Under the pieces are notes generated by a model, which saw nothing but the letters and a program-made list of their open reading frames with translations, ran no database searches and was not told the origin of the DNA. From the sequence record PZ509022.1: a stretch of DNA of 64,000 bases. The stretch is one strand, 5' to 3'. Shown here piece after piece: positions 15,436 to 19,857 of the stretch. Made by a program: the position numbers and the translations under genes. This stretch comes from a phage. Position 1 is the first letter of the stretch. Each line of letters starts with the position of its first letter.

Positions 15436-15648
15436 CTATTCCTTACTAAGAGCAGCATTCAGCTTGTTAGTAATTTTATCCAGACGCTCATTGAACTCAC
15501 TAGAAGATAAGCCCTTTTCTGGAGAAATCAAACTAATCACGAAAAATATAGCAATAAAAGGAATAAGGAAAATAGCTCCAACTGCCATAAACAGAAAGAA
15601 TGTTACAGATGTAAGAAAATCAGCTAAACCTTTACGAAATTTATACAT
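15436..15648 (-). CDS. small membrane protein
   Basis: 70 aa with central hydrophobic stretch. Confidence 0.45.
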   Translation of the reverse strand: MYKFRKGLADFLTSVTFFLFMAVGAIFLIPFIAIFFVISLISPEKGLSSSEFNERLDKITNKLNAALSKE

Positions 15649-15763
15649 ATTTTACCCTTAATTGATTAACCAAGCATTGATAAGCACTAAACTATATTGG
15701 GAATAAAATTCTGGACCAAAATGAAAAATCATATCATTTATAGTATCCATAATGTAATTCAAT

Positions 15764-16234
15764 TTAATCATGTTTCCACACCCCATCGGTATTTGACCAA
15801 AGCCGCTGATTATCTGATCCTCGCCACAGCTTTTTAGTCGGAAGATTTTTCTCATACTTCCCATCAATAATAACATCAACATATTTAAGCATTTCTAGCT
15901 GTTTAACATCTTCAAACTTATATCCTGTCCACAACCAAATGCTTTTATTGGGATAAAGATTTTTTACTGTTTGAACAATGCAATGAATAACATCTCGGTT
16001 ATCAGGATAGAGAGGGTCACCTCCAGTTATAGTCAATCCTTCTATATAATCATTATTCAAACATTCAATTAATTGTTCTAGTGTTTCACCAGTGAATGGA
16101 ATACCATTTCTAGCATTCCATGTTGATTTATTATAACACCCTTCGCATTTATGCAAACAACCTGTAACGAAAAGAACGACCCTGCAACCAGGGCCATTCA
16201 CAAAATCGCAAGGATAAAATCTATCATAATTCAT
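15764..16234 (-). CDS. nrdG: anaerobic ribonucleotide reductase activating protein NrdG (radical SAM)
   Basis: 156 aa; CLHKCEGC cluster motif. Confidence 0.9.
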   Translation of the reverse strand: MNYDRFYPCDFVNGPGCRVVLFVTGCLHKCEGCYNKSTWNARNGIPFTGETLEQLIECLNNDYIEGLTITGGDPLYPDNRDVIHCIVQTVKNLYPNKSIWLWTGYKFEDVKQLEMLKYVDVIIDGKYEKNLPTKKLWRGSDNQRLWSNTDGVWKHD

Positions 16235-18048
16235 TGGTGTTTAACCCTATGCATGATTTCTTTATTTTTACCGAGATTAAATCCGCGTTCGTTCGGATTT
16301 CCCAAATAACCACATGTTCTTCTTATTGTGTTCATCTTTTTAGGATCAGTTTCTCCACAAATAGAACAAACAAATCCGTTTTCAGTAGGAGTCATTTCAT
16401 GGGTACTTCCGCATGTAAAACATTTATCTACTGGCATATTAACACCAAAATAATCTAAATGTTGTGCAGCATAATCCCATACGGCCTCAAGGCCTTTTAA
16501 GTTATTTTTCATATCAGGAAGTTCAACATAAGAAATGTGACCACCTGTCGCAATGAAATGATATGGCGCTTCACGAGAAATCTTTTCAAACGGAGTAATA
16601 TTTTCTTCTACTGAAACATGGAAACTATTAGTGTACCAGCCTTTATCAGTAACATCCTTTACACTTCCATATTTCTCAGTATCAAGTTTACAGAAGCGAT
16701 AGCACAGGTTTTCAGCAGGAGTAGAATACAAGCTAAAAGCAAAACCAGTTCTTTCAGTCCACTGCTTAAGACGAGCATTCATTTTAGTTAAAATTTCTTG
16801 TCCAATATCACGACCGACAAGAATATTCAATTCGTGAATACCAATGTATCCTAGGGACACTGAACTTCTACCGTTTTTAAATAACTCAATTATGTCGTCA
16901 TCAGGTTTAAGACGAACCCCGAATGCACCTTCTTGGTAAAGAATAGGAGCAACAGTAGCTTTAACTCCTTTTAAGGAACTAATTCTACACATCAAAGCTT
17001 CAAAACATAAATCCATTCGTTCATTAAATAGCTCAACAAATTTCTGTTCATTGAATTGTGTTCCAATATAAGAATCTAACGCGATGCGAGGAAGATTCAG
17101 TGTTACAACACCAAGATTATTACGTCCATCAAGAATTTCATTACCAGTCGAATCTTTCCATACGCTCAAGAAACTACGGCAACCCATTGGAGAAACAGGA
17201 ACAGATGAACCAGTGATAGCTTTATTGTTCTTAGCTGAAATAATATCAGGATACATCCTTTTGCTTGCACACTCTAGAGCAAGCTGCTTAATATCATAGT
17301 TCGGATCGTCTTTGTAAAGATTAACGCCTTCTTCGACGAACATAACAAGCTTAGGGAAAATAGGAGTTATCCCATCACGACCGAGACCTTTAATACGATT
17401 TTTCAGAATTGCTTTCTGAATCATTCGTTCAGTCCAGTCAGTTCCCGTACCAAATGTAATTGTTACAAAAGGCGTTTGTCCGTTTGAACTAAAGAGAGTA
17501 TTTACTTCATATTCATAAGCTTGGAATGCATCGTATACGTCTTTTTCTGTTTTAGATTGAGCATAATTCAACGCATCAGCGATTTGCCATTTTTCTGCAT
17601 CCTCAATATGTTTTGCATATGTGCGTTTAACATAAGGAGAAAGTACTTTATCTACATTAGCAAAAGTCGTTCCGCCGTATTGGTGAGAAGCAACCTGTGC
17701 AGTAATTTGTGCCATAATTGCAGTAGCAACGCCAATTGATTTAGGAGTTTCAATTTGAGCATTGCCTAATTTAAATCCATTCTCAAGCATTCCTTTTAAA
17801 TCTACTAAACAGCAATTAGTAAAAGGCAATGATATACTGTAATCTAAATCGTGAAAATGAATTAATCCGACATTATGAGCATTTACAATATGGCTCGGAA
17901 GAATACTACAAGCGATATGTTTAGAAACAATACCGGCCATTAAATCTCTTTTTGTTGGAAAGACACGAGAATCTTTGTTGGCATTTTCGGTATTTAATTC
18001 TTTATCTTTATTTGAAATAAAATTTAAAACATCTTTCTCTAAAGACAT
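16231..18048 (-). CDS. nrdD: anaerobic ribonucleoside-triphosphate reductase NrdD, uninterrupted (605 aa)
   Basis: 605 aa single ORF; C-terminal zinc ribbon and glycyl radical region. Confidence 0.95.
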   Translation of the reverse strand: MSLEKDVLNFISNKDKELNTENANKDSRVFPTKRDLMAGIVSKHIACSILPSHIVNAHNVGLIHFHDLDYSISLPFTNCCLVDLKGMLENGFKLGNAQIETPKSIGVATAIMAQITAQVASHQYGGTTFANVDKVLSPYVKRTYAKHIEDAEKWQIADALNYAQSKTEKDVYDAFQAYEYEVNTLFSSNGQTPFVTITFGTGTDWTERMIQKAILKNRIKGLGRDGITPIFPKLVMFVEEGVNLYKDDPNYDIKQLALECASKRMYPDIISAKNNKAITGSSVPVSPMGCRSFLSVWKDSTGNEILDGRNNLGVVTLNLPRIALDSYIGTQFNEQKFVELFNERMDLCFEALMCRISSLKGVKATVAPILYQEGAFGVRLKPDDDIIELFKNGRSSVSLGYIGIHELNILVGRDIGQEILTKMNARLKQWTERTGFAFSLYSTPAENLCYRFCKLDTEKYGSVKDVTDKGWYTNSFHVSVEENITPFEKISREAPYHFIATGGHISYVELPDMKNNLKGLEAVWDYAAQHLDYFGVNMPVDKCFTCGSTHEMTPTENGFVCSICGETDPKKMNTIRRTCGYLGNPNERGFNLGKNKEIMHRVKHQ

Positions 18049-18860
18049 AATTCTAATTTATCCTTTTGAAATTCTTCGTCTAAATATGGGTTCCAACCCA
18101 TTTTAAACCTTTTGATGAAATTATCAATTCTAAATTTCGGTAAATTTAACTCCGCAAAAATAGATGATTTACTTTTAAAATCTGGACCTAAATAATCATA
18201 TAAAATTTCTGCGTATTTTAACCATAATATATAAGTACCAGATTTAATTGCTCTAGGAGTTTTCCAAGGTTTTACGCCGTACATCGGATTTCCACTTCCT
18301 TTATGCCTGATAGAAGATGAAATTCCAATTTTAATTTTAGCTTCCTTTGTGTGCGAAAATCCATGATGTGGATTTTCTTTCCAGTATTTTTTAGAAGCTT
18401 CTGATATTTTCTTTCTGGCTAAATTAGTATGATGCTTTCCATAAAATCCATGATTTTTACCTTTATTACGATTTCTTTTAATCATGGTTATTGATTGCTT
18501 TTCTCTAGTTTCTTTAGAAGGGGAAACACCGTACGTTGTAAATTGACCATTAGCATATGCTAAATTAAAATACTCTTTATTCCATATATCTTTTTCTATA
18601 TTCTTTTGAAATTCAGCTTCAATGCTAGTTATTTGTTCATCTCCGACTAATTGAAAATATAATATTTCAACTTTCGGTGTTTCTTTCAACAGAGCTTTTT
18701 GAAATTCGGAAGATGACGAAGACGAATAATAAAATTTACCATTTTTATCAATAATATTCGTTCCGTCAAAAGTGCAATTGGTTTTACTTCCAATATAATA
18801 ATATGGCGGGGTTTTAGCATTAATTCTACTAATAAATGATAGTTTATATACTACATTCAT
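18039..18860 (-). CDS. Seg-like GIY-YIG homing endonuclease candidate with NUMOD3-like repeats (273 aa)
   Basis: N-terminal VYKLSFI...YYYIGSKTN; repeats GKNHGFYGKHHTNLARKKISEA and NPHHGFSHTKEAKIKIG. Confidence 0.6.
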   Translation of the reverse strand: MNVVYKLSFISRINAKTPPYYYIGSKTNCTFDGTNIIDKNGKFYYSSSSSSEFQKALLKETPKVEILYFQLVGDEQITSIEAEFQKNIEKDIWNKEYFNLAYANGQFTTYGVSPSKETREKQSITMIKRNRNKGKNHGFYGKHHTNLARKKISEASKKYWKENPHHGFSHTKEAKIKIGISSSIRHKGSGNPMYGVKPWKTPRAIKSGTYILWLKYAEILYDYLGPDFKSKSSIFAELNLPKFRIDNFIKRFKMGWNPYLDEEFQKDKLELCL

Positions 18861-19330
18861 TTTAAACTCTTTCTAAGCTGCTTCTTAAATGAAGCTATTA
18901 ACTGTGTTTTGGTGTCAGATTCATTATATTCAAATCCTCTTTGAAGCATCTCAGCCATCATTTCCTCTTTTCCTAAACGAGAAAATTCCTTTGATTTATC
19001 TCCAACAAAGTTAGGGTGAATATTATTTTGGGTGTAATCGGATTTTAAATAAGTAAGTAAATTTTCTAACCATTCAAGATAATCAACACCTTGACCCTTT
19101 AAGCCAGAACGATTAAATTTATGCTTCATTTGACCTTCCGCTGCATTGCAGAGATTACAGAGCAATCCACGTACCTTTCCTGCTTTTGGTCCATTTAATT
19201 CATGATCATGGTCAAGGTGATTAGCTTGAACATCAGGATTTAGTTCTCGTTGGCAAATTAAGCATTTACCGTTTTGTGCATCATAAAATTTCTGTTTTTC
19301 TTCTTTATATAATTTGCCAGTCAATAACAT
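18857..19330 (-). CDS. 49: endonuclease VII (gp49, 157 aa)
   Basis: 157 aa; Cys cluster CLICQ...CNLCN and HDHE motif. Confidence 0.88.
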   Translation of the reverse strand: MLLTGKLYKEEKQKFYDAQNGKCLICQRELNPDVQANHLDHDHELNGPKAGKVRGLLCNLCNAAEGQMKHKFNRSGLKGQGVDYLEWLENLLTYLKSDYTQNNIHPNFVGDKSKEFSRLGKEEMMAEMLQRGFEYNESDTKTQLIASFKKQLRKSLK

Positions 19331-19371
19331 AATAAACCCTTACCTTAAATAGATAAGGGTATTTATTATTT

Positions 19372-19857
19372 TCAAGTATTGTAAAACATTTGATTCAATC
19401 GCTTATATTGCCGAATCTTTTGGTCAGAAAAAGAAATTTGGGTTTCAAGCCATTCAATATATTCTGCCGCAGCTTGCATCAAATTTCCTTCATAGCCATC
19501 GTTATTTTCTTGTGCAGCTAATTTAGCTAATGCGTATGGAATACGTTCACCTTGAAAATCGGCTTTAGGCTTCTGAACAACTTGATTAGTTCTCTCTACA
19601 ACTTCTTCAATTTCACCATTTTCTACTGATTCAGTATTCCACAAGCACCAATACGTAGTTGGCTTATCGTAGATGTTAATAATCTTTCCATCAGAAAGTT
19701 CAATTTCAATAATTCCAGTATCAGGTTCTATATCATCTTCACATTCTTTTGCAAGTTCACGAACTTTAAAGACAGTACCTGCACTAAGTTCCGGCCAGTA
19801 ATTACATAGCTCTTTATCAGCACGATTAATTCTAAACCACTTATCTACTGTAATCAT
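19372..19857 (-). CDS. hypothetical protein, possibly Pin-like (161 aa)
   Basis: ORF trimmed to ATG; size and position match T4 pin; identity unverified. Confidence 0.45.
   Translation of the reverse strand: MITVDKWFRINRADKELCNYWPELSAGTVFKVRELAKECEDDIEPDTGIIEIELSDGKIINIYDKPTTYWCLWNTESVENGEIEEVVERTNQVVQKPKADFQGERIPYALAKLAAQENNDGYEGNLMQAAAEYIEWLETQISFSDQKIRQYKRLNQMFYNT

Follow-up and report, generated by a model that had tools for sequence, protein, structure and literature searches.

An open reading frame (ORF) of 273 amino acids (aa) plus stop, lying between gene 49 and nrdD in a 64,000-nucleotide stretch of phage DNA (sequence record PZ509022.1; the whole of that stretch is referred to here as the window), probably codes for an active homing endonuclease, of the free-standing kind represented by the Seg enzymes of T4, and this enzyme is predicted to cut the 5′ part of nrdD in phages that lack the gene. 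The ORF, which we call seg, was taken from the ORF listing at positions 18039 to 18860 of the minus strand and starts with ATG. Its homology and fold, the integrity of the gene, its distribution, its linkage to one form of the nrdD 5′ end, the boundaries of the linked tract, and the footprints of its loss are established. An initial annotation had likewise read the ORF as a free-standing Seg-type homing endonuclease, probably directed at nrdD, and all of the computational tests that were run support this, with cleavage of nrdD as the inferred part.

Distribution of seg and its linkage to the 5′ end of nrdD

A tblastn search at an identity of at least 90% yielded 50 phage records, with the match always located between gene 49 and nrdD, and a junction probe recovered the same 49 records. 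The ORF is intact as a 273-codon frame, at 96 to 100% amino acid identity, in about 50 phage records. Because of this conservation, and because the ORF matches PHROG 7504, "homing endonuclease," at 1e-33, it is not a chance ORF. An nrdD gene at 90% identity or higher was present in about 690 records, and thus roughly 7% of the relatives have seg. The possibility of a conserved non-nuclease gene present in all relatives was rejected, as about 93% of them are without it. Carriers are found in two genera, represented by the window, fPS-2, and TadeuszReichstein in Tequatrovirus and by AV114, JK42, and ST0 in Mosigvirus. The synonymous divergence (dS) of seg is 0.019 between the window and JK42, a Mosigvirus, and 0.11 to 0.13 between the window and its fellow Tequatrovirus members fPS-2 and TadeuszReichstein, whose copies cluster with those of the Mosigvirus phages AV114 and ST0. 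There are two seg sublineages, each present in both genera; the relatedness of seg is incongruent with phage taxonomy, and its presence is sporadic among close relatives. Six of the seven copies that were extracted are intact 273-codon frames, and the pairwise ratios of nonsynonymous to synonymous divergence (dN/dS) of 0.08 to 0.47, mostly 0.1 to 0.2, indicate that seg is under purifying selection.

The first part of nrdD is inherited together with seg. Identity comparison delimits a seg-linked ("S-type") tract that comprises nrdD nucleotides (nt) 1 to 225, or codons 1 to 75 (17824 to 18048, minus strand). This tract is 97 to 100% identical among seg-carrying phages, and it shows only 63% identity (142/225) to the corresponding stretch of T4, RB14, ESh18, HX01, and SP18, which are nearly identical to one another there, though they come from three genera. 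Homology resumes abruptly at nt 226, and from that point on the identity to all phages compared is 92 to 100%. All of the fixed seg-linked differences lie within nt 1 to 225, the last of them at nt 215 to 225, and the lowest local identity between seg-linked and seg-less nrdD, 11/25, is at nt 201 to 225. Only about 50 to 52 records in the phage collection contain the S-type tract at an identity of at least 95%, and these are the seg-carrying genomes and phage OLB35. Because the next best matches reach only about 76% (Klebsiella phages) and about 72% (T4-type alleles), the native lineage of the tract is unsampled. In the protein, about one-third of the 75 residues of the S-type NrdD N-terminus are not those of the T4 type, and the tract stops at codon 75, just before PFTNCCLVDL. 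In the literature on T4 NrdD, Cys79 is an active-site cysteine, which places the end of the tract 4 codons earlier.

The distal end of the tract varies, from nt 225 to about nt 300. A variable distal extension covering nrdD nt 226 to 300 (17749 to 17823, minus strand) is marked by a block of variants at nt 279 to 297 that is found in the window, AV114, JK42, and OLB35 and is not found in the seg-carrying phages fPS-2, TadeuszReichstein, Pu-Krd-SF4, and ST0. A fixed proximal tract with a variable distal end is the pattern that would be expected of break-initiated gene conversion from a carrier genome. The S-type tract is presumably the immunity allele, and the homologous stretch of seg-less phages is presumably the target region. 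On the other side of seg, the window is 96 to 100% identical to seg-less Tequatrovirus through to the gene 49 stop codon. Gene 49 keeps the type of its host genus beside seg; over most of its length, copies from the two genera share about 70 to 88% identity. Conservation between Tequatrovirus and Mosigvirus is far higher in the final ∼115 nt of the gene (listed as 18950 to 19070), at 45 to 50 identical positions per 50 versus 33 to 44 elsewhere, which could reflect functional constraint or old co-conversion beside an nrdD hot spot.

Three other genomes or contigs show further stages in the history of the element. In Escherichia phage OLB35, a Mosigvirus (MH992122.1; L002, 2980 to 3010), nrdD begins with ATGAATGTAGTATATAAACTA, where seg codons 1 to 7 (MNVVYKL) run in frame into nrdD codon 8; the S-type tract is kept, and there is no seg gene. 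This is an in-frame deletion of seg that has left a chimeric nrdD. The opposite view, that the OLB35 arrangement is ancestral, was ruled out, as the MN(V/I)VY start corresponds to the GIY motif that is conserved in the Seg family. In Escherichia phage Pu-Krd-SF4, seg (L013, 3839 to 4661) contains one additional T, at nt 734 (GAATTTG versus GAATTG); the resulting +1 frameshift shortens the product to 245 aa, with a truncated C-terminal domain. The same extra base is present in the junction probe match of Pu-Krd-SF3 (182 versus 181 nt). The extra T in Pu-Krd-SF4 could be due to decay or to a sequencing error.

The third case is a distant metagenomic relative, the Logan contig from SRR27536177 (L014, 2188 to 3180), which encodes a seg homolog with 58% amino acid identity whose frame is broken near residue 50. 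The order in that contig is gene 49, an nrdD remnant consisting of codons 1 to 56, the seg homolog, and a full nrdD. The remnant carries the T4-type signature PTQRD and ends in a stop that overlaps the ATG of seg (ATATGAAT). In contrast to it, the full nrdD beside seg has the S-type signatures ELNTEN, PTKRD, and GLIHxHDLDY. The arrangement looks like an independent, one-sided insertion that followed breakage of nrdD at nt ∼166 or farther downstream. Illegitimate one-sided repair has been described for intron homing (PMC2988022).

We propose the following course of events for a seg-encoded endonuclease directed at nrdD. The gene would be transcribed and translated within the 49-seg-nrdD message, without a promoter of its own. 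During coinfection with a seg-less relative, the protein would bind via its C-terminal and NUMOD3 parts, and the GIY-YIG domain would cut the nrdD allele of that relative within its first ∼230 nt. The phage recombination machinery would then repair the break from the seg-carrying genome, copying seg, donor nrdD nt 1 to 225, and a variable stretch beyond. The nrdD 5′ end of the carrier, which is 37% diverged, would be protected from self-cleavage. Our best estimate is that the cut would fall at nrdD nt ∼166 to 230 of seg-less phages, because the left junction in the Logan contig is at nt ∼166 and the fixed tract ends at nt 225, in the stretch of lowest local identity. SegG of T4 is a proven site-specific endonuclease whose cut, in gene 32, is remote from segG itself (PMC2988022, Table 1 and ref. 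39), and co-conversion of the flanks from this distant cleavage site is documented (PMC2988022).

Domains of the seg product and kinship with SegG

The seg product can be divided into an N-terminal catalytic domain of the SegG/I-TevII GIY-YIG type (aa 1 to 108; 18537 to 18860), a linker with two NUMOD3 repeats (about aa 118 to 190; 18291 to 18509), and a C-terminal SegG-type domain (aa 191 to 273; 18042 to 18290) that is presumed to bind DNA and confer specificity, all on the minus strand. The NUMOD3-like repeats noted in the initial annotation were borne out by a profile search, in which Pfam PF07460 matched two stretches at 33.1 bits, above the Pfam cutoff of 20.4. Apart from its own orthologs, the closest phage protein is T4 SegG, with residues 1 to 126 being ∼40% identical (BLASTP, 5e-27; tblastn, 3e-17). 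SegG, the product of T4 gene 32.1, is a free-standing GIY-YIG homing endonuclease located between genes 59 and 32. The two proteins share the N-domain motif MN(I/V)VY...TPPYYYIGSK...SS...E...YFNL at 40% identity and have C-terminal domains of the same type. The kinship of the C-terminal domains was set up only via an intermediate, as direct BLASTP between those domains of the ORF and of T4 SegG gave no alignment. The intermediate, P0004, is a metagenomic protein of the SegG kind that matches SegG along its entire length at 40% identity and aligns to the ORF across both the N- and C-terminal domains, with the NUMOD3 block as a 76-aa insertion in the ORF. Because P0004 links to both proteins, the ORF appears to be a SegG paralog with an added NUMOD3 linker. 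The genes are alike too, in that each is a promoter-less cassette that shares the orientation of its neighbors and lies directly upstream of the gene to which it is linked. SegG differs in lacking the 76-aa block with two NUMOD3 repeats between its domains and in its locus, 59/32 rather than 49/nrdD, such that the targets are presumably different.

Among 18 family members, the invariant residues of the N-domain are Y5, R12, P19, Y22, G24, S25, K26, Y44, S47, E81, N99, and A103. Profile-profile comparison (hhalign) matched this domain to canonical GIY-YIG domains with a probability of 67% (E value, 5e-5) and paired Y22, E81, and N99 of the ORF with Y17, E75, and N90 of I-TevI. The comparison profile was built from I-TevI, I-TevII, and four Pfam-positive proteins; the I-TevI sequence was confirmed at 100% identity. 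In the fold comparison, the N-domain showed the compact alpha/beta fold of GIY-YIG catalytic domains, and the proteins listed beside it were PD-T4-3, T4 EndoII, R.Eco29kI, and UvrC. I-TevI, the structural prototype, is rather different: it is only 21% identical over aligned residues, is encoded within an intron (td), has R27, and binds DNA through a domain made up of a zinc finger and a helix-turn-helix.

Searches of other collections gave little. NCBIfam returned only a subthreshold "group I intron endonuclease" (23.8 bits versus 56). A phmmer search of the ORF against PDB sequences found only ParB-C, a chance match (E value, 0.34), and the beta-propeller and T-cell receptor matches of the N-domain profile in the PDB were rejected as spurious. 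A contig from the ENA (ERZ13617658; L015, 4001 to 4822) encodes another 273-aa protein, which has an N-terminal domain 57% identical to that of the seg product and an unrelated C-terminal half. It is located at a different insertion site, between the gp5 and 5.1/PAAR genes of a T4-like baseplate cluster, and it illustrates how domains have been shuffled within the family.

Points of caution and competing explanations

Several observations weigh against the reading of seg as an active endonuclease directed at nrdD. The ORF had no match to the Pfam GIY-YIG models PF01541 and PF19835 at an E value of ≤1, and Foldseek against the PDB returned nothing significant for the protein. The canonical arginine that follows the YIG motif (R27 in I-TevI) has no obvious counterpart, with R12 and K26 invariant instead. 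The 50 records include near-duplicates, and so the independent acquisitions are fewer than 50. The OLB35 record is flagged UNVERIFIED, and the Logan contig is a single assembly from short reads. Furthermore, the fixed 225-nt tract could persist since 63% identity blocks recombination, and so the tract alone does not place the cut. Cleavage of nrdD is inferred, as are the catalytic activity, cut position, immunity, and translational coupling proposed here.

The failure of the curated models can be put in perspective. Active I-TevII has no match to PF01541 either and scores below the cutoff of PF19835, and therefore these models are a weak test here. Among the 18 family members, three match PF19835 weakly (best E value, 0.012) and one matches PF01541 at an E value of 0.94. 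SegG and I-TevII, both active enzymes, are likewise without the canonical arginine, and the pattern YIG-K ... Y-x-SS is common to them. The lack of a curated match thus reflects the SegG/I-TevII subgroup and is not evidence against nuclease identity. The initial annotation had counted a missing GIY-YIG match as grounds for discarding the assignment, which is invalid for this subgroup. Its description of the N-terminus as GIY-YIG-like is upheld by the 40% identity to SegG, the profile-profile match, and the fold comparison, though not by any curated GIY-YIG model.

We consider it unlikely that seg encodes an active homing endonuclease with a target outside nrdD, be it the 49/nrdD junction, the conserved 3′ end of gene 49, or a site farther away, with the nrdD tract as a passenger from the donor. 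Seg enzymes can cut hundreds of base pairs from their own genes (PMC2988022), conservation is unusually high in the last ∼115 nt of gene 49 relative to the sequence upstream, and a tract that is 37% diverged would stay intact whether the cut fell anywhere within it or at the junction. However, the 3′ end of gene 49 is the same in genomes with and without seg, and a target there would leave the carriers unprotected. The resident nrdD of the Logan contig, broken at codon 56 and joined to the start of seg, fits a break in nrdD, and it is only in nrdD that fixed seg-linked differences are found. The broken copies raise another question, whether seg is a catalytically dead or decaying remnant that spread by ordinary homologous recombination and was perhaps kept for the translation of nrdD. 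Pu-Krd-SF3 and Pu-Krd-SF4 (frameshift), the Logan contig (frame disruption), and OLB35 (deletion) would be in keeping with decay, as would the missing curated match and the missing arginine, and the 10-nt overlap, together with the loss of the native nrdD ribosome-binding context of T4, could select for retention. Yet dN/dS is 0.1 to 0.2 across the whole ORF; Y5, Y22, E81, and N99 do not vary, in a motif pattern that active SegG and I-TevII also have; near-identical copies are found in two genera whose gene 49 sequences differ by 20 to 30%; and OLB35 shows that nrdD can function without seg. On this balance, a dead remnant seems quite unlikely.

Very unlikely, in our estimation, is a gene co-opted for the benefit of the phage, whether by excluding the nrdD markers of competitors, by local recombination or amplification, or by providing a distinct NrdD N-terminus. 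Homing endonucleases do cause marker exclusion (PMC2988022), SegB was recently reported to promote amplification of anti-defense loci (PMC13096335), and the S-type N-terminus is about one-third different from the T4 type; still, a prevalence of roughly 7% and the footprints of loss and decay better fit a selfish element. A broader and rather improbable idea is that of a two-part cassette, in which the endonuclease would serve as the vehicle and addiction module that moves a functionally distinct NrdD N-terminus between genera. If that were true, the overlap of seg and nrdD would make the translation of nrdD depend on seg.

The 49-seg-nrdD block and other elements near nrdD

The region belongs to the nrdG-nrdD-49-pin block of a T4-like phage, in which all of these genes are on the minus strand, and Escherichia phages Lutter and FL08 are 97 to 98% identical to the window across 3.7 kb. 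The gene nrdD (16231 to 18048, minus strand), with its ATG at 18048, encodes the large subunit of anaerobic ribonucleotide reductase; Pfam NRDD (E value, 6e-171) covers the 605-aa product end to end, and Gly_radical also matches. Its description in the initial annotation as an uninterrupted gene proved correct. No Rfam family, the group I intron included, matched 15500 to 19500 of the window at an E value of ≤1, and hence the window nrdD has no intron; the nrdD intron of fPS-2 served as a positive control for RF00028 and scored 105.6 bits. Upstream of seg is gene 49 (18857 to 19330, minus strand; Pfam Endonuclease_7 and Endonuc-dimeris), encoding endonuclease VII, and at the other end nrdD is directly abutted by the activase gene nrdG (15764 to 16234, minus strand; Pfam Fer4_12 and Radical_SAM). 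The ORF listing contains no gene of the mobC or segH type at the nrdG/nrdD junction of the window.

As initially annotated, seg lies directly upstream of nrdD and overlaps it by 10 nt; the shared stretch (18039 to 18048, minus strand), read from the sequence as ATGTCTTTAG, joins the stop region of seg to the start of nrdD, and translational coupling is possible. At its other end, the seg ATG shares a 4-nt ATGA with the gene 49 stop (18857 to 18860). The ORF therefore overlaps both neighbors, with no noncoding DNA around it, and stands alone between conserved genes, outside any intron or intein. Gene 49 and nrdD abut directly in T4, RB14, ESh18, HX01, and SP18; in T4 the two overlap, and mobC is found between nrdD and nrdG. 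A search for the T4 late promoter consensus (TATAAATA) found none near seg. A scan for sigma-70-like promoters and terminators gave 27 hits versus 21.7 expected from shuffling, which is not above chance; no promoter is claimed, not even for a TTGATA-16-TAAAAT site at 18127 to 18100. Because there is no promoter signal and both neighbors are overlapped, seg would seem to behave as a promoter-less cassette in the 49-nrdD transcript. The T4 genes segC, segF, and segG have been described as cassettes of this kind (PMC2988022). A terminator-like hairpin with a 10-bp stem and a T run is found at 19336 to 19360 (minus strand), directly upstream of gene 49, between pin and 49.

Other mobile elements are also associated with nrdD. 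The T4 nrdD intron encodes I-TevII (PMC2988022, Table 1) and not I-TevIII, as the initial annotation had stated. I-TevII is tied to the same gene as seg and is of the same atypical subtype, having YIG followed by K, Y-x-SS(S)K, and no canonical arginine, but it is encoded in a group I intron that interrupts nrdD after about 545 nt, whereas seg is free-standing and upstream. In Yersinia phage fPS-2, seg is accompanied by a group I intron in nrdD, which holds an ORF resembling I-TevII, and by a third endonuclease gene at the nrdG/nrdD junction. The co-occurrence of seg and the intron in fPS-2 led us to reject the idea that seg replaces the intron, and with it the earlier suggestion that seg is an alternative mobile-element solution at this locus. 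SegH and mobC resemble seg in being free-standing endonuclease genes that flank nrdD in T-even phages, and they differ in their position at the nrdG/nrdD junction, the opposite end of nrdD. At that junction, the mobC position in T4, fPS-2 (L007, 2031 to 2765) and TadeuszReichstein (L011, 2024 to 2863) have different endonuclease-like genes, one encoding a NUMOD3 and an I-TevI-type DNA-binding domain and the other encoding NUMOD1/I-HmuI-like motifs. These could be SegH or new genes, and the TadeuszReichstein protein showed no BLASTP similarity to the window ORF. The intron, seg, and the nrdG/nrdD genes are independent occupants of the nrdD neighborhood, the independence of seg and the intron following from the presence of both in fPS-2.

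The type of element described here is well known, and the finding does not amount to a new system or principle; the SegG paralog at the 49/nrdD junction is uncharacterized. Among the papers searched, none reports an endonuclease gene at that junction or an experiment on this ORF. Many GenBank and RefSeq records label the ORF "homing endonuclease," and one labels it "SegG." The intact seg ORF of ST0 (MF044457.1, 13942 to 14760) has been left unannotated, and in Killian (OQ446694.1) the gene under the nrdD match is labeled "endolysin." The standard Pfam models miss GIY-YIG enzymes of the SegG/I-TevII subtype, a point of relevance to automated annotation. Free-standing homing endonucleases shape the genomes of T-even phages through marker exclusion and localized gene transfer, and few of them have mapped targets. 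The seg locus offers an unusually clean natural record of such an element, with a sharp, one-sided, co-inherited tract of 225 nt, occurrence in two genera, an in-frame loss, and an apparently independent insertion with a duplicated remnant of the target. From this record comes a concrete prediction of a cut site, which would lie at nrdD nt ∼166 to 230 of seg-less phages, immediately ahead of the part of the gene that encodes the conserved PFTNCC active-site segment.

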